From Aquificota bacterium (GTDB lineage: Bacteria; Thermosulfidibacterota; Thermosulfidibacteria; Thermosulfidibacterales; B14-G1), in NCBI GenBank assembly GCA_015486015.1, contig WFSL01000022.1:43746-107745 (forward strand): 64,000 nt of DNA. Direction: 5' to 3'. Numbering within the stretch: the stretch's first letter is position 1; each line of letters opens with the position of its first letter. The notes under the pieces are model-generated. The model made no database searches, was not told the DNA's origin, and saw only the letters and a list, made by a program, of their open reading frames with translations. A program made the position numbers and the translations under genes. Below, piece after piece: positions 12,180 to 37,302 of this stretch.

Positions 12180-12206
12180 GGGGTCAGGTCTTGAATTTGG
12201 CAAATT
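12180..12206. repeat. Left inverted repeat (REP-like) of the RAYT element
   Basis: GGGGTCAGGTCTTGAATTTGGCAAATT. It contains the transposase stop codon (12184-12186) and ends 6 nt from the permease ATG. Confidence 0.8.
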
Positions 12207-13050
12207 CTTTGGCCTTTCTGAAGGCCTTGCTGACGGTAGAATAGTGCAGGCCTAAGAATTCTCCCACTTCTTTTAAGGTGTATCCATAGTCGTTAACGGC
12301 CTTATAAATGAGGGCGTTTCTGGCCTTCTTTTCTTTCCCACCTATGGAGAAGAGCTGTTCCAAAGTGGGCCTGGTTGCCAGGCGCTGAATTTTGGGTATT
12401 TCTCTCTCATCCATCTTTTCTTCTAGATAGGGCTTAAGATCCTCCACGAATCCTTCGCTACCCAGGAAAACTCCACTTTCCAGTTGCTCCCATACTTTTA
12501 CACCTTTCCCCTCTGCTACAAAATGCTCGTAAGCCTTTTGGGCATCTGTTCTCTTTTTCGAGAATTGTCCCAATATCCAATCAAGCGCAAGAAAAGCCGG
12601 CGCTTCTTCTCTGCCAGCTGTGGCCTTATAGCTGCTCCACTTCCAATCTCCGGGATGAGAGACAAGTCCGGCCCTTACCGGGTTCAGGACTACATACCTG
12701 ATAAGCTCCAGAAGATAACCTTCCCTTTGCACAATAATCGCTTTGTATCTTCCCTGAAAGAGATGCCCCACCCGTTTATGCCTCCGGTTGAAGATCTGGG
12801 TGTATACTCCATTTAGTTGACGCATCCCTTTGGATAGATTGGCATCGGGTGTCTCAACAACCAGGTGGTAGTGATTGTCCATTAGACAATAGGCGTAACA
12901 AAGCCATCGATACCTCTCTATTACGTCAGCGAGGGTGTCGAGAAAGTCTTCTCGGTCTCCATCATTTAAGAATACGGGTTGCCTTGCATTACCCCTTGAA
13001 GTGACATGATAAAGGGCACCTTCAAATTCTATTCTTAATGGCCGGGCCAT
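12184..13050 (-). CDS. IS200/IS605-superfamily HUH Y1 transposase (REP-associated tyrosine transposase-like) with a C-terminal DnaA domain-IV-like HTH
   Basis: 288 aa. HUH motif in [11 protein letters not shown] and catalytic Tyr context [14 protein letters not shown]. The C-terminus ([26 protein letters not shown]) resembles the DnaA C-terminal DNA-binding helix. Confidence 0.8.
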
Positions 13051-13208: not shown

Positions 13209-13436
13209 ATGATGGGTAAGCGTCTTTTGACTTTTGTCAACACCCACACTGTGATCAAGGCTGAAAGGGCTTTGAGGATGCTGGGTTTTGATGTGGAGGT
13301 GGTTTCTACCCCTAAGGAGATAAGCTCTGAGTGTGGGATGTCCCTTTTGCTGAAGGGTGATCAGCTTCAGGAGGTTTTGGACGCTTTGAGAAGGGAGGGC
13401 GTCGGGGTGGTGGGTGTCTATGAATGGAGCCAATGA
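13209..13436 (+). CDS. DUF3343-like small protein (putative Se/S carrier-like)
   Basis: 75 aa with a conserved-looking core (FVNTHTVIKAERALR...GMSLLL). It sits directly upstream of the desulfurase/YedF/SelD genes and overlaps the next gene. Confidence 0.6.
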   Translation: MMGKRLLTFVNTHTVIKAERALRMLGFDVEVVSTPKEISSECGMSLLLKGDQLQEVLDALRREGVGVVGVYEWSQ

Positions 13437-14589
13437 GAGAGATAGGGTGATTTACCTGGACAATGCGGCTACCACTTTCCCCAAGCCCCCATGTGTTTGG
13501 GAGGCGATGGAGAAGTGTTTCTTCCAGATAGGGGGCAATCCGGGGCGTTCTGGTCACCGCCTATCTTACAAGGCTGCAGCCGTCCTCTTCGACACGAGAG
13601 AATCCTTGGCCAAGCTGTTTCATATAGGTTCGTCTGAGAGGATTGCCTTCACAAAGAATGCAACAGAGGCCATCAATGTGGCCTTGTTTGGTTTGTTGAG
13701 GCCTGGGGACCGGGTAGTGACCACGGCCATGGAGCACAACGCGGTGATGAGGCCCCTGCGCCATCTGGAAAGGTCTAAGGGAGTGCGGATAGATGTAGTG
13801 CCTGCCAATGCCCAGGGGATGGTGGACTTGGAGGCAATGGCTCGGGCCTTAAAGGAGAAGGCAGACCTCTTGGTGGTGAATCACGCCTCTAATGTGGCTG
13901 GGAGCCTGGTAGACTTGGTGGAGGTGGGTTCTTTGGCCAGGGATGCAGGGGTCCCCCTGATGGTAGACGCTGCCCAGACGGCGGGCTGCTGCCCCATAGA
14001 TGTGGAGGCCATGAACATTTCTATCCTGGCGTTTACTGGCCATAAAGGCCTTCTTGGCCCTCAGGGGACTGGGGGGCTTTACGTGGCCCCGGGATTGGAA
14101 CCTTTGCCTTTGATTATGGGGGGCACGGGGTCCAACTCTGAGCGGGAGGAGCAGCCCAGATTCTGGCCTGATGCCCATGAGAGCGGCACCCCTAATGTGG
14201 TGGGGCTTGCGGGTCTTGGGGCGGGGGTAGAGTACGTGATGGATAAGGGCATAGAGGCTGTTAGGGGCCATGAGGAGAGGTTATTTAAACGCTTCTGGGA
14301 AGGGGCCCGGGGTATCCCCGGTCTTTTGCTTTATGGCCCCTCCAGGTGGGAGGAGAGGGTGGCTGTGGTTTCTGTGAATTTGGAGGGGAGGGACCCTGCC
14401 CGGGTTGGCCATAGGCTGGATAGGGATTTTGGTGTTATGGTGAGGGCAGGACTCCACTGCGCCCCTTCTGCCCACAAGTTCCTGGGTACCTTTCCTACTG
14501 GGACAGTACGGGTGGCCTTTGGCCTTTTCAACACCTTGGATGACGTGGACATTGCTTTAGAAGCCCTTGAGGCCATTGCCAGGGGGTGA
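13414..14589 (+). CDS. Class V aminotransferase, cysteine desulfurase / selenocysteine lyase-like
   Basis: YLDNAATT N-terminus, PLP-lysine context FTGHKGLLGP, active-site Cys in RAGLHCAPSAH. The start is ambiguous (GTG 13414 or ATG 13420). Confidence 0.8.
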   Translation: MSMNGANERDRVIYLDNAATTFPKPPCVWEAMEKCFFQIGGNPGRSGHRLSYKAAAVLFDTRESLAKLFHIGSSERIAFTKNATEAINVALFGLLRPGDRVVTTAMEHNAVMRPLRHLERSKGVRIDVVPANAQGMVDLEAMARALKEKADLLVVNHASNVAGSLVDLVEVGSLARDAGVPLMVDAAQTAGCCPIDVEAMNISILAFTGHKGLLGPQGTGGLYVAPGLEPLPLIMGGTGSNSEREEQPRFWPDAHESGTPNVVGLAGLGAGVEYVMDKGIEAVRGHEERLFKRFWEGARGIPGLLLYGPSRWEERVAVVSVNLEGRDPARVGHRLDRDFGVMVRAGLHCAPSAHKFLGTFPTGTVRVAFGLFNTLDDVDIALEALEAIARG

Positions 14590-14592
14590 ATC

Positions 14593-15186
14593 ATGGAGAA
14601 GGTGGTAGATGCCAGGGGGCTGGCTTGTCCCCAACCTGTGCTCATGACCAAGGAGGCCCTGGAGGAAGTGGAGGAGGGCATCATCACTGTGCTGGTGGAC
14701 AATGTGGCTTCCAGGGAGAACGTGAAGCGCTTTGCCCAGCGCATGGGTTGCACGGTAGAGGTTTTGGAGAAAGATGGGGTCTTTGAATTGAGGGTAGTCA
14801 AGGGTTATACTTGTGTGTTGCCCCATGTGCAAGAGGCGAGTGAGAAGGCAAAAGATGGTCCAGTCATCCTCATCACCTCTGACAAGATAGGGGATGAGGA
14901 AGAGCTGGGTCGTCTGCTTATGAAAGGGTTTATTTCTACCTTAAGGGAGGCCACCCTCAGGCCTTCCAAGCTCCTTTTTATGAATACAGGGGTGTTTCTC
15001 ACTGTGGAGGGTTCACCGGTAATAGGGGCCCTGCAGGGGTTGGAGGGTATGGGGGTGGAGATCTACTCGTGTGGTACCTGTCTGGATTACTTCGGCTTGA
15101 AGGACAAGCTGGCCGTGGGCCAGATCACTAACATGTACGATACTGTGGAGAACCTCACGGGGGCCAGTCTGGTAGTGAGGGTGTGA
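14593..15186 (+). CDS. yedF: Selenium metabolism protein YedF (TusA/SirA-like N-domain + DsrE-like C-domain)
   Basis: 197 aa. [19 protein letters not shown] (CPxP motif), then a DsrE-like domain with [10 protein letters not shown]. Confidence 0.75.
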
Positions 15187-15205
15187 GTGTCTAAAGGGGA
15201 AGGCA

Positions 15206-16213
15206 GTGGCTGATAAGCTGAGATTGACCACAACCGTTAGGGCCTCTGGGTGAGGGGCCAAAATAGGACCAGGGGACCTGGTCCGGGTTTTGAGGTCCCT
15301 GGATATCCCCCAGGACCCCCACCTGCTGGTGGGGTTGGCCACAGGGGACGATGCTGGAGTCTATAAGATTAGTGAAGATCTGGCCCTCATCCAAACTATA
15401 GACTTTATCACCCCTGTGGTGGATGATCCTTTTCTCTTCGGCCAGATCGCTGCCGCCAATGCCCTATCCGATGTCTATGCGATGGGGGGAGAACCCTTAA
15501 TGGCCATGAATGTGGTGTGTTTCCCTACCTGTAAGCTGGAGATGGAGGTGCTGGAGAAGATCCTTGCAGGGGGGCTTGGCAAGGTGAAAGAGACAGGGGC
15601 CTTGTTGGTGGGTGGCCATTCGGTGGATGATCTGGAGCTTAAGTACGGGCTGGCTGTCACAGGGGCGATCCATCCCCAAGAGGTGGTAACTAACGCTGGT
15701 GCCAGGCCCGGGGATTTGCTTTTCCTCACCAAGCCCCTGGGTCTGGGTATTGTGGCTACGGCTATCAAAGGCGGTTTGGCAAGTCCTGCTGTGGCGGAGG
15801 AGGCGGGAAGTGCAATGGCTTCCTTAAACAGGGAGGCCTCCCGCCAGATGAGGAAGCGTGGTGTCCATGCCTGCACGGACGTGACGGGCTTTGGTTTAGT
15901 AGGCCATGGGCTTGAGATGGCTAAGGCCAGCGGGGTTACATTGGAAATAGAACTTGAGAGGTTGCCCATCATAGAAGGGGTCCTGGAGTATTCCTCTATG
16001 GGACTCATTCCCGCCATGGCTTATGAAAACCAGGAGTCTTTTAGGTCCTATGTGGATTACGTTCGGGATCCAGGTGAGTTAGAAATTCTCCTTTACGACC
16101 CCCAGACCTCTGGGGGACTCCTCATAGCCCTACCCTCTGATAAGGCTCAAGGCTTCCCTTGGCCCTGTATAGGAAGGGTGGTAAAGGGGGATGGTAGGTT
16201 CCGGGTGGTGTAA
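15206..16213 (+). CDS. selD: Selenide, water dikinase (selenophosphate synthetase), a selenoprotein with in-frame UGA
   Basis: The ORF track begins at 15290. The same frame is open upstream to 15179 except for TGA at 15251-15253. A GTG at 15206 (SD GGGGAAGG 3 nt upstream) gives VADKLRLTTTVRASG-U-GAKIGPGDLVRVL, matching the SelD N-terminal G(U/C)GxK active-site loop. The rest is a typical SelD (LLVGLATGDDAGVYKI...). Confidence 0.85.
15251..15253 (+). other. In-frame UGA selenocysteine codon of selD
   Basis: It falls at the position of the catalytic Cys/Sec in the SelD motif GxG(C/U)GxK. Confidence 0.8.
15260..15291 (+). promoter_or_regulatory. SECIS-like hairpin downstream of the selD UGA
   Basis: The upper stem GGACCAGG (15266-15273) pairs with CCTGGTCC (15277-15284) around a GGA loop. 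The lower AAAA/TTTT stem is 15260-15263 with 15288-15291. The stem starts 13 nt after the UGA and the apical loop is G-rich. Confidence 0.6.
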
Positions 16214-19907: not shown

Positions 19908-19985
19908 TGGCGTCCCCTGGGGGATTTGAACCCCCGTCGCCGCCGTGAAAGGGCGGTGTCCTTGGCCGGGCTAGACGAAGGGGAC
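19908..19985 (-). tRNA. tRNA-Glu (UUC), CCA encoded
   Basis: The minus strand reads GTCCCCTTCGTCTAGCCCGGCCAAGGACACCGCCCTTTCACGGCGGCGACGGGGGTTCAAATCCCCCAGGGGACGCCA. It has a 7-bp acceptor stem, anticodon loop CTTTCAC and a T-arm GGGGG/CCCCC. Confidence 0.9.
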
Positions 19986-19994
19986 AAAAGCAAT

Positions 19995-20070
19995 TGGTGA
20001 GCCGCCCAGGACTCGAACCTGGAACCAACGGCTTAAAAGGCCGTTGCTCTGCCACTTGAGCTAGCGGCTC
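19995..20070 (-). tRNA. tRNA-Lys (UUU), CCA encoded
   Basis: The minus strand reads GAGCCGCTAGCTCAAGTGGCAGAGCAACGGCCTTTTAAGCCGTTGGTTCCAGGTTCGAGTCCTGGGCGGCTCACCA. It folds as a cloverleaf with anticodon loop CTTTTAA. Confidence 0.9.
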
Positions 20071-25264: not shown

Positions 25265-27916
25265 ATGAGGGGAAAGAGGTGGGTCTACTTCTTCGGTGCA
25301 GGGAGGGCCGATGGTGATGCCTCTATGAGAGAGATCCTGGGGGGGAAAGGCGCCAATCTTCATGAGATGAGTAGATTGGGGATACCCGTACCCCCAGGTT
25401 TCACCGTATGCGCACAGGCCTGCGTCTTTTATCTCTCAAAAGGGGCTTGGCCGGAGCACCTGGAAGAGGAGGTGCGGGAGCACATGGTCCTCTTGGAAGA
25501 TGCCATGGGCCGTGCCTTTGGCGATAAGCAGTATCCACTCCTGGTGTCTGTGCGCTCAGGGGCCCGGGTCTCCATGCCGGGCATGATGGATACCGTCCTC
25601 AACCTGGGGCTCAACGATGAGACCGTGGGTGGTTTGGCTCGTGCAACCGGCAATCCCAGGTTTGCCTTCGACTCCTACCGCAGACTCCTCCAGATGTTTG
25701 GCGAGGTGGTGAGAGGGATACCCCATCAGCTCTTTGAGCACCAACTGGAGGAGGTGAAGAGGCTTCATGGGATCACTCAGGATACAGAGCTTTCTCCGGT
25801 GCACTTACAGGAGGTGATCCAGAGATACAAAGAGGTGTTTGCACGGGAGGGGACCTCATTTCCCCAGGGCCCATGGAGGCAACTGAAGGAGGCCATTGAG
25901 GCCGTGTTTCAATCCTGGGACAATCAACGGGCACGCACCTATCGCAGGATCCACGGGATCCCTGACGATTGGGGTACCGCCGTAAATGTGCAGGCCATGG
26001 TCTTTGGAAACATGGGGGACGATTCCGGCACGGGGGTCACATTCACCAGGAACCCTGCCACGGGGGAGAGGGGGCTATTTGGAGAGTTCCTCCCCAATGC
26101 CCAAGGGGAAGATGTGGTAGCAGGCATCAGGACCCCCATGCCCATATCGGGTCTAAGGGAATGGATGCCCAAGGTCTACCAGGAGCTATGTGATTTGGGT
26201 GACCTGTTGGAGCGCCACTACCGAGACATGCAGGACATAGAGTTCACCATAGAGAAGGGGTCACTCTATGTTCTTCAGACCCGCTCGGGGAAGAGGACCG
26301 TGAGGGCTGCTATGCGCATCGCAGTGGAGATGGTGGATGAGGGGATAATTGACAGGGCCACGGCCCTGCTGAGGGTAGACCCAGAGCAGCTTCGGCAGAT
26401 CCTTCATCCGGATATTGATCCAAATGCCGTGTACTGCTTGATCGCAAGGGGACTGCCTGCATCCCCAGGGGCCGCCTCTGGTAAGGTGGTCTTCTCAGCT
26501 AAGGAGGCGGAGGAGATGGCATCAAAGGGCGAAAAGGTGATCCTGGTGAGGCCTGAAACGTCGCCGGACGATATTGGGGGCATGGATGCTGCTCAAGGGA
26601 TCCTTACCGCCCGGGGTGGCATCACATCCCATGCAGCGGTGGTGGCCAGGGGGATGGGGAAGTGCTGTGTGGTGGGATGCGATGCCCTCCTCATCAATGA
26701 AGTGGAGGGATACATTTTGGCGGATGGGATAAGGATCAACAGGGGGGACGTGATCACACTCAATGGTTCCACAGGGGAGGTGATCCAGGGTGAGGTGCCA
26801 TTGGTGGAGGCAGAGCCGGGTCCCTACTTCTCGAGGCTCATGGGGTGGGCCGATTCGGTGCGTGCCCTCCAGGTGAGGGCCAACGTTGACACCCCTGAGA
26901 ATGCGGCCTTGGCAAGGAGATTGGGGGCAGAGGGCATTGGGCTCTGCCGCACGGAGCATATGTTTTTTGAGAAGGACAGGATCAATGTGGTGAGGGAGAT
27001 GATCCTGGCTGAAACCACCCAAGAGAGAAAGAAGGCCATCACCCAGCTCCTCCCTATGCAGAGGGAGGATTTCAAGGGCATCCTTAGGGTCATGGACGGT
27101 TTTCCTGTCACCATCAGGCTCCTCGATCCACCCCTCCATGAGTTCCTACCGAAGAGCCCAGAGGAGATGGAGGCCTTCTCAAGGGAACGGGGCATCCCAT
27201 TAGAAAAGGTGAGGCAAAAGGTGGAGAGGCTCCAGGAGTTCAACCCCATGCTTGGCCTCAGGGGTTGCCGCTTAGGTATACTGTTTCCGGAGATATACCG
27301 GATCCAGGTGAGGGCCATATTTGAGGCGGCATGTGCCCTGGCCAAGGAGGGGGTTGACGTACGTCCAGAGGTGATGGTTCCGCTTGTGGCTCATGTAAGG
27401 GAGATGAGGATACTGAGAGACCTCATCGAGAGGGAGGCCTCCGATGTGATGAAGGAGCAGGGCATTAAGGTGGAGTATCTCATTGGTACCATGATAGAGC
27501 TGCCCAGGGCAGCCCTCACCGCTGACGAGATTGCCCAGGAGGCGGATTTCTTCTCCTTTGGGACAAACGATCTCACCCAGACCACCCTCGGGATCTCCAG
27601 GGACGACGCCGCCAAGTTTCTTCCACAGTATGTGGAGATGGGGATCTATTCTAAGGATCCCTTTGCCACTCTGGAAGAGGAGGGGGTAGGGCAGCTCATG
27701 GAAATGGGTGTGATCAAGGGCAGGAGCGTACGTCACAACCTCAAGATCGGTATCTGTGGAGAACACGGTGGGGACCCCGCCTCCATAAGACTCTGCCACA
27801 GGATAGGGCTGAACTATATCAGTTGCTCCCCTTACCGTATCCCAACGGCCAGGTTGGCGGCTGCCCAGGCCAGGGCCCGAGAGGAACTGAGTAAGGTGTC
27901 AGGTCTCAACATTTGA
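25265..27916 (+). CDS. ppdK: Pyruvate, phosphate dikinase
   Basis: KRWVYFFG...LGGKGANLHEM N-terminus, phospho-His context GGITSHAAVVARG, C-terminal PEP-utilizing domain. The ATG at 25265 is preferred to the ORF-track 25241. Confidence 0.92.
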   Translation: MRGKRWVYFFGAGRADGDASMREILGGKGANLHEMSRLGIPVPPGFTVCAQACVFYLSKGAWPEHLEEEVREHMVLLEDAMGRAFGDKQYPLLVSVRSGARVSMPGMMDTVLNLGLNDETVGGLARATGNPRFAFDSYRRLLQMFGEVVRGIPHQLFEHQLEEVKRLHGITQDTELSPVHLQEVIQRYKEVFAREGTSFPQGPWRQLKEAIEAVFQSWDNQRARTYRRIHGIPDDWGTAVNVQAMVFGNMGDDSGTGVTFTRNPATGERGLFGEFLPNAQGEDVVAGIRTPMPISGLREWMPKVYQELCDLGDLLERHYRDMQDIEFTIEKGSLYVLQTRSGKRTVRAAMRIAVEMVDEGIIDRATALLRVDPEQLRQILHPDIDPNAVYCLIARGLPASPGAASGKVVFSAKEAEEMASKGEKVILVRPETSPDDIGGMDAAQGILTARGGITSHAAVVARGMGKCCVVGCDALLINEVEGYILADGIRINRGDVITLNGSTGEVIQGEVPLVEAEPGPYFSRLMGWADSVRALQVRANVDTPENAALARRLGAEGIGLCRTEHMFFEKDRINVVREMILAETTQERKKAITQLLPMQREDFKGILRVMDGFPVTIRLLDPPLHEFLPKSPEEMEAFSRERGIPLEKVRQKVERLQEFNPMLGLRGCRLGILFPEIYRIQVRAIFEAACALAKEGVDVRPEVMVPLVAHVREMRILRDLIEREASDVMKEQGIKVEYLIGTMIELPRAALTADEIAQEADFFSFGTNDLTQTTLGISRDDAAKFLPQYVEMGIYSKDPFATLEEEGVGQLMEMGVIKGRSVRHNLKIGICGEHGGDPASIRLCHRIGLNYISCSPYRIPTARLAAAQARAREELSKVSGLNI

Positions 27917-27955
27917 CATCTCAAACCACCTTGTCAAATGTTGAGACCTGACACC
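27895..27955. repeat. REPIN-like palindrome: 24-bp perfect stem, 13-nt loop, related to the RAYT inverted repeats
   Basis: GGTGTCAGGTCTCAACATTTGACA (27895-27918) and its exact reverse complement (27932-27955). Each arm resembles GGGGTCAGGTCTTGAATTTGACA of the RAYT flanks. It spans the ppdK stop and ends 9 nt from the convergent pilin stop, so it may also act as a bidirectional terminator. Confidence 0.75.
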
Positions 27956-27964
27956 AAAATTTAC

Positions 27965-28615
27965 TTAGGGCTGCTTGTCGAAGAAGTAGACCAGGGAGAC
28001 AAGGGTGTCTTCGCTTTTGGTGCAACTCCAGGCATAATTTCCGTTCCTCACTGTGGTTCCAATTAGCTCCCTAATCCGACCTACCCCGGCATTTAGGCCA
28101 TTGTCTATGGACTGGTCGATCATCTTTGCTACCCAGCAGGGAATATTGTTGACGGCGATCACATTGTAGTTCACGCCGTTCACCGTTTCATAACCCAGGT
28201 AGAAGGGCCCATTAAAGGCGTTCTTGAATGCCTGCCTGTTGGGGGCAGTCTTGTCAGCGATGCCCGCCCATTTGAGGTCGTTGAAGGGCCTGTCATCGGT
28301 TCCACCGGTGGCGGAACAAGGGGTTGTGGGGGCGGTGGTGCTTGTATCTAAGTAGGCCAAGGTCCAGTGACCATTGACATGATTGTCAATGGTGCCGTCG
28401 GGACTGTAGGCTGGGCAGTCGCCGGGGAACCTGCCATACCTGTCATAGAAGGTCCAGGCCATAGCCTCTAAACCCCTCATGTCGTTGAGGGTCCTCTTTG
28501 CCCTGGCATTGTTGATAAGGGACTGACCCTTGAGTATGGCCCCCAGGATGATTCCGATGATCACCAGGACAATGGCCAACTCGATCAGTGTAAAACCTCT
28601 CCTGTCCTTCAGCAT
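27965..28615 (-). CDS. Type IV pilin-like protein (prepilin-type N-terminal cleavage/methylation domain), 216 aa
   Basis: Leader MLKDRRG, then FTLIELAIVLVIIGIILGAIL (G-1, F+1, E+5). Four Cys in the globular part. It has its own promoter and a strong SD (AAGGAGGTG). Confidence 0.8.
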   Translation of the reverse strand: MLKDRRGFTLIELAIVLVIIGIILGAILKGQSLINNARAKRTLNDMRGLEAMAWTFYDRYGRFPGDCPAYSPDGTIDNHVNGHWTLAYLDTSTTAPTTPCSATGGTDDRPFNDLKWAGIADKTAPNRQAFKNAFNGPFYLGYETVNGVNYNVIAVNNIPCWVAKMIDQSIDNGLNAGVGRIRELIGTTVRNGNYAWSCTKSEDTLVSLVYFFDKQP

Positions 28616-28707
28616 CCTCTCACCTCCTTAAGTTTGATCTTTTGGCTGCAAACGCTTCATCCTCCCCCTTCCAAGGCATCACCTCCCTTTTTGAAATTTT
28701 GATTTTT

Positions 28708-28735
28708 AGAATAGCCTCTTAGGAATGCTTGTCAA
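28708..28735 (-). promoter_or_regulatory. Candidate sigma70-type promoter of the 216-aa pilin gene
   Basis: Minus strand: TTGACA (28735-28730), 16-nt spacer, TATTCT (28713-28708). It predicts a purine-rich leader of about 85 nt. Confidence 0.45.
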
Positions 28736-28776
28736 GTGTAAAATATTTTTACACATAAATGACAAAATTTTTACAC
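28736..28776. promoter_or_regulatory. Candidate operator: GTGTAAAA-TAT-TTTTACAC palindrome plus a third TTTTACAC half-site
   Basis: Perfect 8-3-8 palindrome at 28736-28754, directly abutting the -35 element. It contains TGT-N11-ACA. A third half-site at 28769-28776 is 22 bp centre to centre from the second one and overlaps the kinase stop codon. This is an AT-rich island in a GC-rich locus. Confidence 0.4.
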
Positions 28777-30525
28777 ACGCAGGTCCTTGGGTAAGGTCAC
28801 CTTAAAGACCGTTTCTTTGTCTTTATGGTAAAGGCTTACTTCCCCTTTTAGCACCTTTATGGTCTCCTTTACGGTATAAAGACCCAGCCCCGTACCCTGG
28901 GGCCTTGTGGAGAAGAAAGGCTCGAAGATGCGATCATAATCTTCTGGAGGCACGGGTGCCCCATTGTCTGCCACCTCTATGATGACTTTGTCCTCCTTTT
29001 GCCAAAATCTGAGGGTGATTCGGATGGAAGACGGATCCTTCTGGTAGGCATTCATCAGCAGGTTCTCCACCACTGTGGTCACCATGGTATCGTCTGAGAA
29101 TAGTTGCACGTCCCCTCCTTGAATCTTGATCCTATCCTTGAACGGAAGGGACTCTACCAACCTTTCCATGGACCCCTTCAGAGAGAAGGAATGGGGCTTA
29201 GGGGGAGGAGGGGCCAGGGCGGTGAGGTTGTCAATAGCCTTGTGGGTTCGCTGATCCAGGAGGGCAAAGAGGGCCTCCAAATCCCCTTGGGCCTCTTCGG
29301 GGGATTGATGAGTGTAGAGGGGGAGGTTCTGGCGGTATAGTTTTATCGTCTGGGCCAGATTTTTCAGGTCATGGGCAATAAACCGGTTGAGCTTTTCGAC
29401 CAGATCCAGTCTCTCCTCAAGGACCCTTCTCTCTTGGGCCATAATGGTGGTCAACTGGTGGGCCAAGAGGGTGGTGAGGATGGAGGCGGTCCTATTGTCC
29501 AATTTGTCAGGGCTGTGAAAGAAGAAGAGGGTGAGGCTCGTCCTCCATTGGTGATCTAAGGGTTGCTCATGGGTGATCTGGTGGGGGGTTTCCTGGCCTG
29601 CCTGGTGGCGAAAGGCCTCTTTACCCTCAATGAAGAGTGCACCCTGGGCGCCAGCAAGGGTGCCGTTCTTCAAGAGCTGCTCCACGAATTCTTTTATGGT
29701 CTCTCGGTATCCCCTGGCATCTGTGGATGATGTGAGGATCTTAGCAAGGAGGCGATGCAGGTCCACCCTCTCTCTGTACAGGTGCATCAGCAGATAGGAG
29801 CGTATCCTGGGCCAAGAGACCCCAACGAGCCCAAGGACCATCCCTGAGACCACCAAAAACCGGGTAGTCCTGATGAGGGAGCCCCCCTGGGTCGCTACGT
29901 TCAGCAACATCACCACCAGCACATAAACGGCCACGAGGAAGAATGCCAGGCCTTTTACCGTCATCTCCATGGATGGCCTCACCTGGATGCGCAGGACCTC
30001 GCCCTTCACGGAAGTGGCTAAGGCCGAGAGATTGACGGCCTCCATGATGCAGAGCCAAAAGGCCGCTGCCGTCTTTGACTCCTTAGGGTTTAAGGCATTG
30101 TGGAGGACCGTAGGCGCATAGATGTATATTGTGGCGAATATGGGGGGGATGAGGAGCAGGAGGAAGAGGATCCTGTCCGATGGGCCCTGAAAGCTACGCG
30201 AGACGTTCTCCATCACAAGGATGAGTAGAAGGGCCAGGATAATAGCGCTCAAGGGGAGCAGAGGGTTAAGGAACAGGGGAGGGATGAGTACCAGCAGGGG
30301 GAGAAAGAGGATCAGCCTCCAGGCCCTTCCAGCAGGCAGTGCCATGAGCGCCATAGTAAGGTAGAGGAGTGCAAGGGTGAGGGTGACGCCCTTCACAAAG
30401 AGGGGTGGTGGCAGGGAGGATGTGATCAGCCCCATTGCCAGGGATAAAAGGAGCAGTAGGTTTGCGGGCCTTTTGAGGGGAATAATGATCGCGGCTAAGG
30501 GTATCAGGGTGACGAGTGGCCACAA
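28771..30525 (-). CDS. Polytopic sensor histidine kinase (PilS/PrsK-like architecture)
   Basis: The N-terminal 250 aa or so are almost entirely hydrophobic (about 8 TM segments). H-box FIAHDLKNLAQ; ATP-binding boxes NLLMNAYQ, VADNG and GTGLGLYTV. The TTG start at 30525 is uncertain. Confidence 0.8.
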   Translation of the reverse strand: MWPLVTLIPLAAIIIPLKRPANLLLLLSLAMGLITSSLPPPLFVKGVTLTLALLYLTMALMALPAGRAWRLILFLPLLVLIPPLFLNPLLPLSAIILALLLILVMENVSRSFQGPSDRILFLLLLIPPIFATIYIYAPTVLHNALNPKESKTAAAFWLCIMEAVNLSALATSVKGEVLRIQVRPSMEMTVKGLAFFLVAVYVLVVMLLNVATQGGSLIRTTRFLVVSGMVLGLVGVSWPRIRSYLLMHLYRERVDLHRLLAKILTSSTDARGYRETIKEFVEQLLKNGTLAGAQGALFIEGKEAFRHQAGQETPHQITHEQPLDHQWRTSLTLFFFHSPDKLDNRTASILTTLLAHQLTTIMAQERRVLEERLDLVEKLNRFIAHDLKNLAQTIKLYRQNLPLYTHQSPEEAQGDLEALFALLDQRTHKAIDNLTALAPPPPKPHSFSLKGSMERLVESLPFKDRIKIQGGDVQLFSDDTMVTTVVENLLMNAYQKDPSSIRITLRFWQKEDKVIIEVADNGAPVPPEDYDRIFEPFFSTRPQGTGLGLYTVKETIKVLKGEVSLYHKDKETVFKVTLPKDLRV

Positions 30526-30530
30526 GCGAG

Positions 30531-31190
30531 TCAGTTTTGCGCCCCCCTTCTTATCCCGTGTTTCCTCAAGAGGTAGTAAAGGGCCTCCCTGCTTATCTTC
30601 AGGAGCCTTGCAGTGCGCATCACATTGAATCCCGTGATGCTCAGGGCCTTCTCTACAATCTCCCTCTCGAACTTGTCCCTGAGCTCATTTAGCCCCTCGG
30701 AGAAGGCATACTCAGTGAGTGGGGAGGTGCCTTCTTCCCCCTGGACGATCCCCATGTCCCTCTGGATGGCCACCTCCCTCCCCTCCCTCCTCCGGATCTC
30801 CTCCTCGATCTCTCTGATAAATAGGGCCCTCTTTACCGATAGTTCCAGGGTCTCGGGCTCCGCTGGCTTCATGATGTAGTCGAATGCCCCCGAGGCTATG
30901 GCCTGAACGGCGGCCTCCTTAGATGTCTGCCCCGTGAGCACTATCACCTTTGTGCCCCTTTCGACCAGTGGAGGGATGAGGGAGAGCCCACCCTCTGGGG
31001 AGTCCTCGAAGGGGGGTAAACCAAGGTCCAGAACGGCCACCTGGGGGGTGAAACCCTCAAGGATGTCCAGGGCCTCCTCTTTGCTAAAGGCAGTAATCAC
31101 GTTGTAATCCATCTGGGCACTGAATAGGAGCTTCAATTGTTTGGCCAGAACCCTGTCATCTTCTACAATAAATAAATTGGCCTTTGGCAT
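30531..31190 (-). CDS. Response regulator: receiver + Fis-type HTH, no AAA+/sigma54-interaction domain
   Basis: 219 aa. Acidic pair VEDD, phospho-acceptor context VAVLDLGLPP, conserved Lys in DYIMKP. C-terminal TARLLKISREALYYLLRKHGI. Only about 45 aa of linker separate the two domains. Confidence 0.8.
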   Translation of the reverse strand: MPKANLFIVEDDRVLAKQLKLLFSAQMDYNVITAFSKEEALDILEGFTPQVAVLDLGLPPFEDSPEGGLSLIPPLVERGTKVIVLTGQTSKEAAVQAIASGAFDYIMKPAEPETLELSVKRALFIREIEEEIRRREGREVAIQRDMGIVQGEEGTSPLTEYAFSEGLNELRDKFEREIVEKALSITGFNVMRTARLLKISREALYYLLRKHGIRRGAQN

Positions 31191-31193
31191 TTC

Positions 31194-32114
31194 TTACTTG
31201 TCGCTGAGGTTGTATTTGCTCCCGTATCTTTTCCCGTAGATCTGGCAGTTGCCATTGGCGTCCACGGCCTGGGCATCGCTGAAGTCTATGCCATTGTCCG
31301 TCCCGGGACCATCAGCATCCAAGCGGAGGCATATCCACCCAACCTTCCTGTAAACGCAGATCCTTCCTGTGTTGTCCACCTGGAAGGTGTCTCCGTTCTT
31401 TTTAGAGGTGAGGCCTGAGCAATAGAATACGAAGGTGGGGCAGGAGGAAGAGGTGGGGTGGCTCACATACACTATTGAGCCGGTGTTGGTGACAGCATAG
31501 CTGCTGCAGCCCATACTTCCCATATTGGCGCACAACAATCCTGCCAGATACGAGAGGGAGAGCTCGCCCACAATATCATCGTTGCTTGACGATATGATCT
31601 TGGACTCGTCCTCATATATTCGATCGTTGGAACCTTTGGAAATGTCGGCGTCCTGGCCATCGGGGGTATGGTTCTCCCCAGGGCTGAAAAAGACAGCGGC
31701 CATCTCTCCCGATGAGGTCTGGGGATAATCGGCAGTGCCGTTGGTGGCCAGTTGGGTAAGCCTTTGGCAGAATTGAGTGAGGGAAGTGCTGCTGGCCAGC
31801 TTATCGTTCACATCGTAGTAGAGCTGGGAGTGCCAACTGTCCTCTCCCCTCACCCCTAAGGTAAGATAAGGTAATCTGCCCGTGGTCTGGTGAGAGTTCT
31901 CCTTGCCATCCCCATTGATGTCTGCCCAGGGGAGCCTCCCTTGCATCTGAGCGAACCCCTGCAAAGCCACCTTCACCTCCTTCACCACAGTCCTGGTCTC
32001 GGTGACCTTGTTCTGTTTCACCAAGAGGCCAAAAAGGGGTATGCCCAATCCTATAACGAGTCCCAAGATCACCAGAGCAATGGCCAACTCTACCAGGGTA
32101 AAACCCCTTTTCAT
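31194..32114 (-). CDS. Large pilin-like protein (prepilin-type N-terminus), 306 aa, Cys-rich C-terminal module
   Basis: Leader MKRG, then FTLVELAIALVILGLVIGL (G-1, F+1, E+5). Eight Cys, seven of them in the last 110 aa or so. DxNxDG-like loops (DINGDGKE, DADGPGTDNGID). ATGA overlap with the upstream gene. Confidence 0.7.
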   Translation of the reverse strand: MKRGFTLVELAIALVILGLVIGLGIPLFGLLVKQNKVTETRTVVKEVKVALQGFAQMQGRLPWADINGDGKENSHQTTGRLPYLTLGVRGEDSWHSQLYYDVNDKLASSTSLTQFCQRLTQLATNGTADYPQTSSGEMAAVFFSPGENHTPDGQDADISKGSNDRIYEDESKIISSSNDDIVGELSLSYLAGLLCANMGSMGCSSYAVTNTGSIVYVSHPTSSSCPTFVFYCSGLTSKKNGDTFQVDNTGRICVYRKVGWICLRLDADGPGTDNGIDFSDAQAVDANGNCQIYGKRYGSKYNLSDK

Positions 32115-33532
32115 TTCCCCACCTCCCCTTTTCTGATCAAGTCCTCCAACTCCTTGAGCCTTTCCTGGGCCTGTTTCCCCGCTGGGGTCTGTGGGTACTT
32201 CTCTGCCACCTCCGAGAGCTCTGACTCAGCCTTCTTCCAGTCCTCTTCGTTCCAATGGATGAGGGCCATCTTTAAGAGGGCATCTGGTACCTTGTTCCCC
32301 GAGGGATAGTCTTTAAGGATGCGCGAAAAACAAGCCCCTGCCTTTTCCCACTCCTTCTGTGCATAAAAACTCTCACCCAGCCAGTAAAGCGCATTATCTG
32401 CCCATGTGCTGTTTGGGAACTTCTTCACCAGCCTTCGAAATACCTCTCGGGCCTCGTCCACCTTCCCATCAACAAAGAGCTGGTATCCCTTTTCATAGAG
32501 CTCTTGGTCCGATAATGGTTGCTCGGTAGGAGGGGGGCTTTTTTTCTGGATGGCAGGGGGCTCCTCTTTTTTGGGAGGTGGTTCCTGGCTACATACAGGG
32601 GTAGCCTTGGGTTTAGCCCTTTTGGCTATTGTCATGAAGAGAGAGGCCCCCAGTAGCAGGGCTACAAGCAGCATTACTGGCAGGAGTATAAATGGGAGCC
32701 TCCTTGTTGAACTCTTATCCCCCTGGATCACCATGGTGTTGTAAGCCCTCTTTATGTATCCTTTATCAATAACGGTCTTCTCATCGGAGTAGGCCAAGAG
32801 CAGTGCCCTTGAGAAGAGGGCATTTATCTTCCTGGGTATCCCCCCGCTGAACCTGTGGACCACTCTTATGGCCCCTTTCCTCACGGTGAGGTTCCCCCTA
32901 CCCGCTTTTGAGAGCCTGAAGAAGATATAGTCTCTCGTTTCTTTGAGGCAAAATGGTTCAAGGGTCTCCTTGATAGTGATCCTCTGGTTCAGTTGGCGTA
33001 GCCTCTTGTCGTTTATTTTATCGAGTAGCTCCGGCTGCCCAACCAATACGATCTGGAGGAGCTTCTTCTTCTCCGTCTCGAGATTTGACAAGAGGCGCAA
33101 CTGCTCTAAGCTCTCTATGGGTAGGTTCTGGGCCTCATCGATCACGATGATGACCCCCTTCTCCTCCTTGGCCTCTCCCAGGAGATATTCAGAAAACACT
33201 CTTATCAACTGATCCTTGGAGGGTACCTCTTCTTTTATCGGGACCTTTAAGTCCCTTAGGATGGCCACCAGAAGCTCTGTGGGGTTCAGGTTTGGGGTAA
33301 GGATGACGGCTACCTCTTTGTTTGGAGGCAGTTCCTTTAAGGCGAGCCTCAACACTAAGGTCTTGCCTACCCCCGCCTCCCCCAGGATCACGGCGAAGCC
33401 TTCGGCGGACCTAAACACATACTTCAGCGCCTCCAGGGCGCCTTGGTGGGATCTCGAGGGAAAGAAGTACTCCGTATCTGGAGTGAGGCGAAAGGGCTCA
33501 TCCTGAAAGCCAAAAAAACCAGTATAGTCCAT
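32111..33532 (-). CDS. ExeA/GspA/MshM-type AAA+ ATPase fused via a TM segment to a CpoB(YbgF)-like TPR domain
   Basis: N-terminal FGFQDEPFRLTPD, Walker A GEAGVGKT, DEAQ box VIDEAQNL. TM segment LPFILLPVMLLVALLLGASLFMTI, then a Pro/Lys-rich linker. The C-terminal region LYEKGYQLF..G....A...F......FPNS..ADNALYWLGESFYA aligns by eye with the CpoB encoded at 63356. Confidence 0.75.
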   Translation of the reverse strand: MDYTGFFGFQDEPFRLTPDTEYFFPSRSHQGALEALKYVFRSAEGFAVILGEAGVGKTLVLRLALKELPPNKEVAVILTPNLNPTELLVAILRDLKVPIKEEVPSKDQLIRVFSEYLLGEAKEEKGVIIVIDEAQNLPIESLEQLRLLSNLETEKKKLLQIVLVGQPELLDKINDKRLRQLNQRITIKETLEPFCLKETRDYIFFRLSKAGRGNLTVRKGAIRVVHRFSGGIPRKINALFSRALLLAYSDEKTVIDKGYIKRAYNTMVIQGDKSSTRRLPFILLPVMLLVALLLGASLFMTIAKRAKPKATPVCSQEPPPKKEEPPAIQKKSPPPTEQPLSDQELYEKGYQLFVDGKVDEAREVFRRLVKKFPNSTWADNALYWLGESFYAQKEWEKAGACFSRILKDYPSGNKVPDALLKMALIHWNEEDWKKAESELSEVAEKYPQTPAGKQAQERLKELEDLIRKGEVGK

Positions 33533-33535
33533 CCC

Positions 33536-34750
33536 CTACCTCTTAATCTTGCCCAGCATATCGTAGATGGGTCCTAAGAGACCTAAGATGATGAGCACGA
33601 GGAGAATTGCAGCCCCTATCAGGACCACGGGTTCCAGGACCTTTGATATGGTCTCCACCATCCTGTTGACCCTATCCATATAGAAGTCGGCGATATAACG
33701 CAATTGGGTATCGAGGTCTCCTGTGCTGGCCCCCACGGTGACCATCCTTATGACCAAGGGCTCGAAGTAGCCAGGCGCCGCAAAGGCCTCCTGGATGGAA
33801 CCCCCCGCCGCCAGCTTCTCTCTAATCTCCCGGATTACCCCACGGATCACCAGGTTTGGTGTGGATCCTTCCATGGTGCGCAGGGCCTCAAATATGGAGA
33901 TGCCCGCTGTGACCAGAAGAGAGAAGTATTCAAAGAAGAAGGCGATGGCAGAGTTCTTTATTATGGGTCCAAAGATGGGGAGTCTCAGGATAATCCGATG
34001 GTAAACCTTTCTTATCCTCTCATCGTACCTTGAGGCCATATGGAACCCTAACAAGAGAACGGGTGGTATGAAGAAGAGGTACCAAGAGTGGTTCACAAAG
34101 CTCACAATGCCAATGAGTATCTTGGTGGTAAGGGGGATGACTATGTTCATAGAGTGGAACATGGTAAGGACCTTGGGCAGCACATAGAGCATCCAGAATA
34201 AGAAGGCCCCCGTCATAGAGATGAGTACGAAGATGGGGTAGATGAGAGCCCTTTTGGTGTTGGATATGATGGTATCTACCCGCTCCAAGTGGTCTGCTGC
34301 GTCTCTCAGCATCTTTCCCAATTCCCCGGTCCCTTCGCCTATCCTCACCAGGCCCACCACGATGTCGGGGATGACCTTAGGGTGTCTGGCCATGGACTCA
34401 GAGAGGAGAAACCCATCCTCAAGGTCTCGGCAGACTGCCTTTAGCACATTCTTCAAGGTCTTATTCTTGGTGGTTTCTGCAAGATCCCTCAGGCTCTGGG
34501 CCAAAGGTAGCCCGCCGGAAACCAGCAGGGAAAGGTTATTACAGAGCTCTATGATGTCACGTCGCTTCACCTTCTGGATGAGAAAGGTTTCCAGTATGGT
34601 GTAGGCGAGCTTAGGGACCTCTTTGACATCCACAAGGGTCATGTCAGAACTGCTGACAAAGCGATCCAAGGAGACGAGGTCGGAGAACTCTCTGAAACCC
34701 GTGACCGTCTCACCCCTTGGTGTGATGGCTTTGTACCAGTAGATTGGCAC
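33536..34750 (-). CDS. Type II secretion / type IV pilus platform protein (GspF/PilC/MshG family)
   Basis: 404 aa with duplicated T2SSF-type cytoplasmic domains separated by TM helices. The GTG start overlaps the ATPase stop by 1 nt. Confidence 0.85.
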   Translation of the reverse strand: MPIYWYKAITPRGETVTGFREFSDLVSLDRFVSSSDMTLVDVKEVPKLAYTILETFLIQKVKRRDIIELCNNLSLLVSGGLPLAQSLRDLAETTKNKTLKNVLKAVCRDLEDGFLLSESMARHPKVIPDIVVGLVRIGEGTGELGKMLRDAADHLERVDTIISNTKRALIYPIFVLISMTGAFLFWMLYVLPKVLTMFHSMNIVIPLTTKILIGIVSFVNHSWYLFFIPPVLLLGFHMASRYDERIRKVYHRIILRLPIFGPIIKNSAIAFFFEYFSLLVTAGISIFEALRTMEGSTPNLVIRGVIREIREKLAAGGSIQEAFAAPGYFEPLVIRMVTVGASTGDLDTQLRYIADFYMDRVNRMVETISKVLEPVVLIGAAILLVLIILGLLGPIYDMLGKIKR

Positions 34751-36387
34751 TATCCCACTACCCTCCTCACCTCTTCCAGGGTGGTGATGCCCTGGCAGGC
34801 CTTGCCCACGGCATCCTCCCTTAACGTGGTCATACCCTCCCTCCTGGCTTCCTCTTCAATCTGGTAAGGCGGGGCGTCTTCAGCAATGAGCTGTGCCACT
34901 CTGGGAGAGACCATCAGCACCTCTGAAATTGCCGTTCTGCCCAAATACCCTGTGTTGCTGCAGTGGGTACACCCTCTCCCCCTGTATAAAAGGGCGTCCT
35001 CTGGTATGGAATAGACAGAGCGTTCTTCTTCTGTGGGGGTGTAGGGCTCCTTGCAGTATGGACAAACCTTTCTCACAAGCCTCTGGGCAATGACACCTAT
35101 GAGAGAAGTGGAAAGGAGGAAACTGTTTACATGCAGGTCCTTTAGCCTGGGTATGGCCCCCACTGCATCGTTGGTGTGCAACGTGGAGAGGACCAGGTGT
35201 CCAGTAAGGGATGCCCTCACAGCCATCTGTGCCGTCTCCTCGTCCCTTATCTCCCCTACCAGGATCACATCGGGGTCCTGGCGTAGGAAGGTCCTGAAGG
35301 CCGATGCAAATGTGTAGCCCACCTTTTCATTCACCTGGGTCTGGCGCACCATGGGGATGGTGTATTCTACAGGTTCCTCCACAGTGAGTACGTTCTTCTC
35401 TAAGGTGTTGATGTGCCGGAGGGCGGCGTAGAGGGTAGTGGTCTTCCCTGAGCCGGTTGGTCCCACCACAAGGACAATACCATAGGGGCTGTCAAAAAGG
35501 CGCTTGATTTTGGTGAGGTCATTGGGGGAAAAACCCAGAAAGGGAAAACTGAAGACACTGGTGTTCTTGTAGAGTATTCTGGCAACCAGGTTTTCCCCAT
35601 TGATAGAGGGGACAGTAGAGACCCTCAGATCAAAGTGTTCACCTACAAAGGAGAACTCGCTCCTGCCATCCTGGGGTTTCCTCTGCTCAGAGATGTCCAT
35701 CCCAGAGCGTATCTTCCAGTTGGCCACTATGCGGGGGTGCAGGGCGGCGGGTAGAGAGTAAAAGAGGTGCAGGACGCCATCAATTCGAAAGGATACGTGG
35801 GTAGATCTATCTGTGGGGGTGATGTGGACATCAGAGGCCCTCTTGCTCACTGCAGAGATGAGGATGAACTCCGTGAGGCGATCTATGTCCACGAAGGCAT
35901 CAGGGTCCCTCTTTATGGGCTGGAGGAGGGTTTCTATCTCCTGGTCCACTGGATGTTCTAAAAGCCAGTAAGACTGATTCACTTTCCTGCGTATCTGGGG
36001 GGCAGGACCCACCAGGATCCTTGGGGGCTTATCCAGGATCCGGCAGAGGGCATCCTGGAGTGAGAGATCGTAGGGGTCTGCCACCACAACATTTAGGTTC
36101 CCACCATCCAGAGAGATGGGGAGCACAACCTTCTGCTCCGCCAAGTGGAGGGGGATCCTTCTCAAGGCCTGGGGATGAGGGTTGAGGTCCTTCACCTCTA
36201 TAAAAGGTCTGCCTGCCTGCTCGGCCAACACCATAGCCATCTCTTCCTCAGTAACAAAGCCCAGGCGGATGAGCACCTCGCCCAGCCGCTCTCCTGTGGT
36301 TTTTTGCTCCTTCAAGGCAAACTGGACATGGGCCTCTCGAATGACCCCCCTTTCCTTTAGGAGTTCACCAACACGCTTTTTGGACAA
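34750..36387 (-). CDS. Type IV filament assembly ATPase (GspE/PilB/MshE family) with an N-terminal MshEN domain
   Basis: Walker A GPTGSGKTTT, Asp box LTVEEPVEY, Walker B VILVGEIRDEETA, His box TGHLVLSTLHTNDA, tetra-Cys CPYC...CTHC. The TTG start at 36387 is preceded by AAGGAGGT. The N-terminus carries two 24-aa RLGxxLLxxGxx...Q motifs. Confidence 0.9.
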   Translation of the reverse strand: MSKKRVGELLKERGVIREAHVQFALKEQKTTGERLGEVLIRLGFVTEEEMAMVLAEQAGRPFIEVKDLNPHPQALRRIPLHLAEQKVVLPISLDGGNLNVVVADPYDLSLQDALCRILDKPPRILVGPAPQIRRKVNQSYWLLEHPVDQEIETLLQPIKRDPDAFVDIDRLTEFILISAVSKRASDVHITPTDRSTHVSFRIDGVLHLFYSLPAALHPRIVANWKIRSGMDISEQRKPQDGRSEFSFVGEHFDLRVSTVPSINGENLVARILYKNTSVFSFPFLGFSPNDLTKIKRLFDSPYGIVLVVGPTGSGKTTTLYAALRHINTLEKNVLTVEEPVEYTIPMVRQTQVNEKVGYTFASAFRTFLRQDPDVILVGEIRDEETAQMAVRASLTGHLVLSTLHTNDAVGAIPRLKDLHVNSFLLSTSLIGVIAQRLVRKVCPYCKEPYTPTEEERSVYSIPEDALLYRGRGCTHCSNTGYLGRTAISEVLMVSPRVAQLIAEDAPPYQIEEEARREGMTTLREDAVGKACQGITTLEEVRRVVG

Positions 36388-36406
36388 TGAATTACCTCCT
36401 TAAAAA

Positions 36407-36435
36407 ATTATAAAGGGTTTGAAACACCCCTTCAA
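36407..36435 (-). promoter_or_regulatory. Candidate sigma70-type promoter of the filament operon
   Basis: Minus strand: TTGAAG (36435-36430), 17-nt spacer, consensus TATAAT (36412-36407), about 20 nt upstream of the TTG start. Confidence 0.5.
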
Positions 36436-36479
36436 CCCTGGGAGCTGCTTGGCTTTACACAAAAGGGTTGCTCTGTTAA

Positions 36480-37302
<823 letters not shown>

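Follow-up and report, generated by a model that had tools for sequence, protein, structure and literature searches.

The subject of this report is a seven-gene type IV filament locus on the minus strand of a 64-kb stretch of contig WFSL01000022.1 (hereafter the window, in whose positions all coordinates of the locus are given). Read in the direction of transcription, it encodes a 545-aa MshE-type ATPase (34750-36387, TTG start) combining T2SSE and MshEN domains; a 404-aa MshG-type platform protein (33536-34750, GTG start) with two T2SSF repeats; a 473-aa MshM-like, ExeA-family AAA+ protein (32111-33532) joining an AAA_22 domain to TPR repeats; a 306-aa N_methyl prepilin, P306 (31194-32114); a 219-aa response regulator with Response_reg and HTH_8 domains (30531-31190); a 584-aa histidine kinase (28771-30525) with a HATPase_c domain behind a polytopic N-terminus; and a second, 216-aa N_methyl prepilin, P216 (27965-28615). 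In the same order, the genes are separated by a 1-nt overlap (mshE/mshG), a 3-nt gap, a 4-nt overlap (mshM/P306), a 3-nt gap, a 5-nt gap and, before the P216 gene, a 155-nt gap. A first-pass annotation of this DNA had described seven co-directional genes with these coordinates, junctions and domain identities, and our check of the open reading frames (ORFs) re-found all of them, with the Pfam and NCBIfam profile runs in agreement for each of the seven proteins. The first six genes look like one operon followed by the separately promoted P216 gene, a layout proposed in that annotation and supported by the junctions and by the two promoter-like sites described below. Ratios of nonsynonymous to synonymous substitution (dN/dS) of 0.08-0.26 for six of the genes, obtained from two lineages with the split organization discussed below, indicate that they are maintained under purifying selection.

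The ATPase matches T2SSE at 412.6 bits and MshEN at 56.5 bits in Pfam, and it passes NF053729, the model for MshE-related proteins with the cyclic di-GMP (c-di-GMP) motif, at 65.8 bits against a cut-off of 38. Its residues 5-57 read RVGELLKERGVIREAHVQFALKEQ, KTTGE and RLGEVLIRLGFVTEEEMAMVLAEQ, that is, two 24-residue motifs separated by a 5-residue spacer, which is the tandem arrangement defined for the MshEN motifs of Vibrio cholerae MshE (PMC5013675). In a neighbour-joining tree it groups with ATPases associated with ExeA-type proteins and secretins, next to proteobacterial loci of the order M-L-N-E-G, and falls inside the clade of its closest relatives as sister to the Thermodesulfobacteria. 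A sequence search of the PDB returned Thermus PilF as the best match (463 bits); since the PDB holds no full-length MshE structure, this match does not separate the classes. The platform protein is matched by T2SSF over two stretches at 174 bits.

The AAA+ protein (AAA_22, 89.7 bits, and TPR matches in Pfam) consists of an ExeA-type domain (aa 1-260), one transmembrane (TM) helix at about aa 281-303, a proline-rich linker and a TPR region (aa 340-470), and its homologues carry the names ExeA family or general secretion pathway protein A. The TPR region had been taken for an MshN-like domain. This reading has to be given up: the region passes TIGR02795 (tol_pal_ybgF) at 106 bits against a cut-off of 90.1 and is 38 % identical over 90 aa to the window's own cpoB (32111-32520 vs 63740-64000), the genuine cpoB following pal at the end of the tol-pal operon (63740-64000), and a second operon described below encodes an MshN-like TPR protein of its own. 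Hence, judged by these sequence matches, the protein appears to be an MshM-CpoB-type fusion and not an MshM-MshN fusion. The full AAA+-TPR architecture is rare, being seen in 11/120 among the ExeA-family matches listed, other matches carrying PG_binding_1, SH3_3 or SPOR domains in place of TPR; the fusion also occurs in Thermodesulfovibrionia (locus L004). ExeA-type proteins are accessories of the type II secretion system (T2SS) in Aeromonas, where ExeA has a role in secretin assembly. The window protein shares with the Aeromonas ExeA-ExeB (GspA-GspB) pair the N-terminal cytoplasmic AAA_22 domain, the single TM helix and a periplasmic C-terminal domain, and related loci encode a small protein beside the secretin with a weak GspB-like match; it differs from ExeA in that its periplasmic domain is a TPR of the CpoB/YbgF type instead of PG_binding_1.

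Both prepilins have canonical class III signal peptides (MKRG/FTLVE in P306 and MLKDRRG/FTLIE in P216), and these are the only two such motifs in the six-frame translation of the window, so that the two proteins, formerly called pilin-like, are genuine prepilins. P306 lies above the cut-offs of both N_methyl and TIGR02532 and belongs to a small family, of which 13 proteins were found, with a conserved N-terminal region of about 200 aa and a variable, Cys-containing C-terminus. Residues 59-72, GRLPWAD-x-NGDG-x-E, are invariant in all 13 members and resemble a calcium-binding loop of the DxDxDG type. An AlphaFold2 (AF2) model of P306 (predicted local distance difference test, pLDDT, 74.8, which is moderate) places the alpha1 helix at residues 7-58, and a Foldseek search of the PDB with it gave no match at E <= 0.001, only weak generic pilin matches. 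P306 is probably a minor, priming or tip pilin. P216 also exceeds the cut-offs (N_methyl 34 bits, TIGR02532 29.9 bits) and has orthologues at 30-54 % identity in loci of the MSHA (mannose-sensitive haemagglutinin) class, abbreviated MSH, from other phyla; its single-sequence AF2 model was poor (pLDDT 43.8) and was left unused. We regard P216 as probably the major pilin, in the role of MshA.

With tblastn, no secretin, no MshI/J/K-like protein and no second ATPase of the GspE/PilT/PilB family was found in the 64 kb, and the six-frame motif search revealed no third prepilin there. In these respects the first-pass annotation, which had remarked on the want of a secretin, alignment genes, PilT and further pilins in an organism with a Tol-Pal system at 59.8 kb (the latter is indeed present, at 59.8-63.4 kb), is borne out. 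Peptidase_A24 was likewise not detected in the ten less obvious window ORFs that were scanned, the remaining ORFs being read by eye as housekeeping genes, nor among the precomputed Pfam matches of the called genes in the related loci L088 and L094. The lack of a peptidase had been thought remarkable, a view that does not stand for a locus of the MSH class, as loci of this class never encode a prepilin peptidase (PMC6668835).

Searching species-representative genomes with the ATPase gave 80 loci, which were annotated by BLAST against the window proteins and against the Thermodesulfovibrionia locus L004, and their gene orders were tabulated. The closest ATPases (44-52 % identity) are found in 38 of these loci, L009-L046, which belong to Thermodesulfobacterium, Thermodesulfatator, Nitrospirota, Geobacter/Trichlorobacter, Syntrophorhabdus and Dissulfurispiraceae. 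A secretin gene lies beside the ATPase gene in 33 of the 38 and an ExeA-type M gene is present in 29, several contigs ending early; most also have I/J/K-like genes and many hold P216-like and P306-like pilins. The usual relative order is I-J-K-secretin-E-G-M, together with a TPR protein. In Thermodesulfovibrionia loci of this type, a tandem pair of MshE paralogues, of 550 and 548 aa and each with MshEN, separates the secretin gene from the platform gene (L004, 5385-8784), and MAGs (metagenome-assembled genomes) of Persephonella and Hydrogenothermaceae (L032, L034, L040) contain an orphan MshE-like ATPase of the same clade (44-46 % identity) with no adjoining platform, ExeA or secretin gene.

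Closer to the window are three sister-lineage contigs, L088-L090, reached via members of the P306 family. In them the locus occupies the same place, flanked by P-II (glnB)-rpiB-glyA, and runs as a single locus on one strand in the order E-G-M-P294-RR-HK-P212-474-144-149-secretin-TPR, where RR and HK are the response regulator and histidine kinase, the numbers are lengths in aa, and the secretin has 491 aa. In L090, mshE was called as two ORFs (156 and 399 aa; 4319-5973), reflecting a frameshift or an assembly error. A secretin, P0136, 71 % identical to that of L088 was found on contig JALTGC010000173 of MAG GCA_027077485.1 (L094), in an operon with genes of 461, 149 and 146 aa upstream, the 486-aa secretin itself and a 323-aa TPR protein, all five being orthologous to the module of L088. 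Another contig of the same MAG, JALTGC010000194 (L001), is 99.93 % identical in DNA to window positions 27777-33847. L094 resembles the window in GC content and tetranucleotide usage (r = 0.977, vs 0.02-0.30 for loci of other phyla), and P0136 recurs on a 39.4-kb contig of another assembly, paralleling the window protein P0001 on a 127.5-kb contig. The same split is seen in a further MAG, GCA_015486105.1 ('Aquificota bacterium'; WFSI01), in which the compact locus (L003/L008) and a secretin-TPR pair (L097) are on different contigs; the L097 and L094 secretins share 87 % identity, consistent with the 78-82 % for E, G and M. In L098 another I-J-K-L-TPR operon stands alone next to dnaE, and in L091 accA directly follows the pilin gene, as in the window, with no secretin module there. 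The first-pass picture of a stripped-down machine is thus overturned, as the secretin/alignment module follows the pilin gene in L088-L090 and forms a separate operon in two MAGs.

The L094 secretin passes the MshL model TIGR02519 marginally (251.5 vs 250.2 bits) and fails those for PilQ (144 vs 284.35 bits) and GspD (140.6 vs 351.35 bits), and its relatives are already called MshL in several sources. In the published MSH model, mshA, E, G, L and M are mandatory and multi-locus systems are allowed (PMC6668835; Denise et al. 2019). Of these components, mshE, mshG and mshM lie in the window and mshL is supplied by L094, in the same MAG. In the reference survey MSH systems were almost exclusively single-locus and largely proteobacterial (PMC6668835); here the genes are split in the window lineage, the WFSI01 MAG and L098, and contiguous in L088-L090. 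Given that the published model permits multi-locus systems, the split does not exclude membership. A type IVa pilus (T4aP) does not fit, the PilB score of the ATPase (477.1 vs 675.65 bits) and the PilQ score of the secretin being under their cut-offs and the window having no second ATPase paralogue. Hence, we propose, with a probability of about 80 %, that the window locus constitutes one half, with the inner-membrane motor, the pilins and the regulators, of a complete MSH pilus system split over two loci. On this reading it is a new, uncharacterized member of the MSH class. The identification of an MSHA-like filament module in the first-pass annotation is accordingly upheld, with an MshE bearing the c-di-GMP motif, an MshG, an ExeA/MshM-type AAA+ protein and two true prepilins. 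That annotation had also reckoned with a standard class whose missing parts would be adjacent; the class is indeed an established one and the parts are in the genome, although not just outside the window.

It could be argued that the filament is truly secretin-less, a reduced structure confined to the inner membrane and periplasm and acting, for example, as a sensor, with the L094 operon serving another system or organism. The 64 kb free of secretin and alignment genes, the similar want of the module after the pilin in L091 and the dependence of the link between the loci on MAG binning all lean that way. However, that the two halves belong together is shown by their contiguity in L088-L090, an orthologous secretin operon of matching composition and divergence is present in each of the two compact-locus MAGs, and a protein of the ExeA type, with its known role in secretin assembly, is kept under purifying selection (dN/dS of mshM 0.10 between the split-locus lineages). 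We therefore consider this alternative very unlikely.

A less improbable, though still unlikely, alternative is a type II-like secretion apparatus, in which the two prepilins would form a periplasmic pseudopilus pushing substrates through the secretin. MSH and T2SS form adjacent clades that arose from T4aP (PMC6668835), and the GspE equivalog is the top NCBIfam match of the ATPase. The I-like and K-like proteins weakly match GspL and GspB, and there are two pilins only and no MshQ-like LamG protein; the T2SS role of ExeA-type proteins in Aeromonas points the same way. Yet every T2SS-specific model falls short of its cut-off (GspE 510.7 vs 630.25 bits, GspF 246.2 vs 424, GspD as above, and GspG 24-29 vs 88.85 for the window prepilins), whereas MshL passes; GspC and the GspH-K set are missing; mature P216, at about 209 aa, is far larger than GspG; and the ATPase keeps the c-di-GMP motif that the Xanthomonas T2SS ATPase XpsE has lost (PMC5013675).

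The locus has its own two-component system, as had been claimed for it. The regulator (Response_reg 64.9 bits, HTH_8 34.2 bits) joins a receiver (REC) domain to a Fis-type helix-turn-helix (HTH) and has no sigma-54 AAA+ domain. Hydropathy and sequence give the kinase about 7-8 TM helices with short loops in aa 1-240, no periplasmic domain, an intact H-box (FIAHDLKN) and a HATPase_c match of 71.4 bits. Because the best NCBIfam match of the regulator is to PrsR and that of other components is at or near the top to related models (TIGR03015 for the AAA+ ATPase, 234.5 bits; TIGR02915, PrsR, 137 bits; TIGR02916, PrsK, 96.7 bits), a regulatory and export module linked to PEP-CTERM proteins and exosortase was also entertained. 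All three scores are well under their cut-offs (324.5, 502.6 and 300, respectively), the regulator is without the sigma-54 AAA+ domain of PrsR, the PrsK match covers the generic kinase core only, and no exosortase or PEP-CTERM protein occurs in the window or related loci. This link was rejected and has a negligible probability.

The two-component system more closely recalls PilS-PilR, which controls pilA in Pseudomonas aeruginosa, Geobacter and Myxococcus. Both pair a polytopic kinase lacking a periplasmic sensor domain with a regulator bearing REC and a Fis-type HTH, and in both the two genes lie directly upstream of a separately transcribed major pilin gene. The likeness seen is one of architecture, and there are differences: the window regulator (219 aa, REC and HTH_8) has no sigma-54 activator domain, the kinase has about 7-8 predicted TM helices vs 6, and the pilin gene has a sigma-70-like promoter whose -35 hexamer adjoins an inverted repeat. 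An NtrC-type regulator acting on a sigma-54 pilin promoter, as in PilS-PilR, is thus not what is found here.

The P216 promoter (TTGACA-16-TATTCT; 28708..28735, minus strand) is of the sigma-70 type and the second-best promoter-like site on that strand, and its -35 hexamer is conserved in the related locus L002. A sigma-54 promoter for P216 was considered and discarded, for matches to such sites across the window are no more frequent than expected by chance, and the pilin strand of the kinase-P216 intergenic region has none. Abutting the -35 hexamer is a perfect inverted repeat, GTGTAAAA-N3-TTTTACAC (28736..28754), which we propose as the candidate operator of the REC-Fis regulator. It occurs once in the window, where 0.04 occurrences are expected by chance, and is also present before the orthologous pilin gene in L002, L088 and L091, making four lineages including that of the window; no copy was found upstream of the mshE operon or of the L094 secretin operon. 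An imperfect second half-site copy (TGTGTAAAAATTTTGTCA) is found at 28755-28775, 10-20 nt upstream of the perfect repeat and overlapping the kinase stop codon, and L091 likewise has two tandem operator-like sites.

The P216 mRNA would begin with a purine-rich 5' leader (28616..28705, minus strand) containing three GGAGG boxes resembling Shine-Dalgarno sequences and two short upstream ORFs of 19 and 10 codons. Over the last ~75 nt of the leader the window and L002 hardly differ, and this part is better conserved than the flanking promoter spacer. The leader may act as a translational standby or enhancer element, or encode a leader peptide; a riboswitch or other structured leader was rejected, as no Rfam family matches it and its folding (z = +0.84) is no better than that of shuffled sequence. 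Downstream, between the P216 stop codon and the convergent ppdK gene, a perfect inverted repeat of 24 bp enclosing a 13-nt loop (27895..27955) is likely to be a bidirectional terminator or mRNA stabilizer; read directly, its distal arm extends into ppdK, covering the final ~22 nt of the coding sequence. In L088, too, a strong GC hairpin with a T tract comes after the orthologous pilin gene. The presence of a strong hairpin after the pilin gene in both L088 and the window makes the boundary between this gene and the I-J-K-L-N genes a natural break point.

The promoter of the mshE operon (TTGAAG-17-TATAAT; 36407..36435, minus strand), also of the sigma-70 type, matches the consensus at 10/12 positions and is the best promoter-like site on that strand, in keeping with its earlier description as near-consensus. 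Direct reading places AAGGAGG after it, upstream of the TTG start of mshE. Both hexamers (-35 and -10), the Shine-Dalgarno box and the site of translation start are kept in two other lineages (L002 and L006), the start codon itself being replaced by GTG in one and ATG in the other. Position 36435, the edge of the finding as first reported, falls on this promoter and not on any gene. A 143-aa ORF at 36432-36863 (minus strand), antisense to the P-II gene glnB (36510-36848, plus strand), is almost certainly spurious.

Set against the MSHA system of Vibrio cholerae (mshHIJKLMNEGF and mshBACDOPQ), the split system has in common an MshE with tandem MshEN motifs, MshG, an ExeA-like MshM, an MshL-type secretin (TIGR02519), an MshN-like TPR protein, proteins of MshI/J/K size upstream of the secretin, and a locus with neither a prepilin peptidase nor a retraction ATPase. 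The order differs, with E-G-M followed by the pilins and I-J-K-L-N standing apart, vs I-J-K-L-M-N-E-G in Vibrio. Further differences are the two loci, two prepilins against about six, the missing MshQ-like LamG protein, the embedded two-component system, the periplasmic CpoB-type TPR of MshM, and the host, an uncultured thermophile lineage in which the MAG of the closest relative is labelled 'Aquificota bacterium' at NCBI. Clusters of a related kind in Geobacteraceae have been annotated as Msh pili (PMC3543383). Those of Geobacteraceae, Thermodesulfobacteria and Thermodesulfovibrionia have ATPases 44-52 % identical to that of the window and of the same clade, the I, J, K, L, E, G and M genes with a TPR protein, pairs of P216-like and P306-like pilins, and in several instances (L011, L015, L045) a neighbouring two-component system. 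Unlike the window locus, they adjoin a secretin gene in the great majority of cases (33/38 of L009-L046, as noted above). Moreover, the Thermodesulfatator regulator, unlike that of the window, is of the NtrC type with a sigma-54 domain (461 aa), Geobacter-type loci such as L030 encode an MshQ-like protein with a LamG domain, and several other Msh loci have a protein of a size like that of MshQ (~520-620 aa) after the pilins.

These comparisons suggest how the split MSH system might operate. Locus 1, in the window, would contribute MshE, MshG, the MshM-type AAA+ protein with its CpoB-like TPR, P306, the two-component system and P216, and locus 2 an MshI-like protein, two small MshJ/K-like proteins, the MshL secretin and the MshN-like TPR protein. 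Binding of c-di-GMP to the tandem MshEN motif would activate MshE, which together with MshG would polymerize processed P216 through MshL, with P306 priming or capping the filament. Cleavage of the prepilins would fall to a peptidase whose gene lies elsewhere, as it does in every MSH system. The ExeA-type MshM would probably aid the assembly or placement of the secretin, with the CpoB-type domain standing in for a peptidoglycan-binding domain. The kinase and the REC-Fis regulator would control the sigma-70-type P216 promoter through the inverted repeat. PilS monitors the membrane pilin pool, and PilS-PilR thereby autoregulates pilin (PMC6058289); the membrane-embedded kinase could monitor this pool in the same manner, here independently of sigma-54, because the regulator has no AAA+ domain and no sigma-54 site is present. 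Surface adhesion would be the predicted output.

Several observations weigh against the interpretation of the locus as half of a split MSH system, or against particular steps of this scheme. The connection of L094 to the window is based on MAG binning, composition and congruent divergence and not on a closed genome, and the I/J/K-like proteins give weak matches only in profile searches (GspL, E = 8e-4; GspB, E = 0.012), with nothing above cut-off in Pfam. The ATPase tree is a neighbour-joining tree without support values and without a Vibrio reference. A tentative assignment of P216 as a possible MshA orthologue draws on its prepilin signal and locus context. In MshEN motif I, one of the hydrophobic positions has a Lys (RVGELLK) and two Leu residues are conservatively changed to Val, so that c-di-GMP binding by the ATPase is predicted and not certain. 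The spacer of the inverted repeat is 3 nt in the window vs 1 nt in L002, which is odd for a rigid dimer site, and the search for the peptidase and the retraction ATPase covered the window only.

Elsewhere in the window, a 288-aa ORF (12184-13050, minus strand) situated between an ABC permease gene and a cysteine-desulfurase-like gene matches Y1_Tnp at 54.9 bits, indicating an IS200-like Y1 transposase, and is longer than a typical IS200 TnpA. The region 13414-16213 appears by its N-terminal sequences, read by eye, to be a selenium-utilization cluster, with genes resembling those for cysteine desulfurase/selenocysteine lyase, SirA/YedF-DsrE and SelD. Two adjacent tRNA genes (19911-20070, minus strand) are the sole Rfam matches in the window at the gathering threshold.

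The features by which this system varies from other MSH systems, namely its two loci, the embedded sigma-54-independent two-component system with its conserved operator, the MshM-CpoB-type fusion and the two pilins, are incremental. Tentatively, and with considerable doubt, we may picture them together as a minimal two-pilin MSH pilus, made of a major pilin and a bimodular 300-aa pilin variable in its C-terminal domain, with major-pilin transcription governed by a sigma-54-independent analogue of PilS-PilR acting at GTGTAAAA-N3-TTTTACAC and with an MshM whose CpoB-type TPR, taken on in exchange for the usual peptidoglycan-binding domain, possibly couples pilus or secretin assembly to Tol-Pal and peptidoglycan synthesis. 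What appeared to be a diderm filament without secretin, alignment proteins or peptidase is thus explained as an MSH system whose outer-membrane and alignment operon has been relocated, which counsels caution in calling components missing from windows or single loci, and the lineages described here add examples of multi-locus MSH systems from outside the Proteobacteria.

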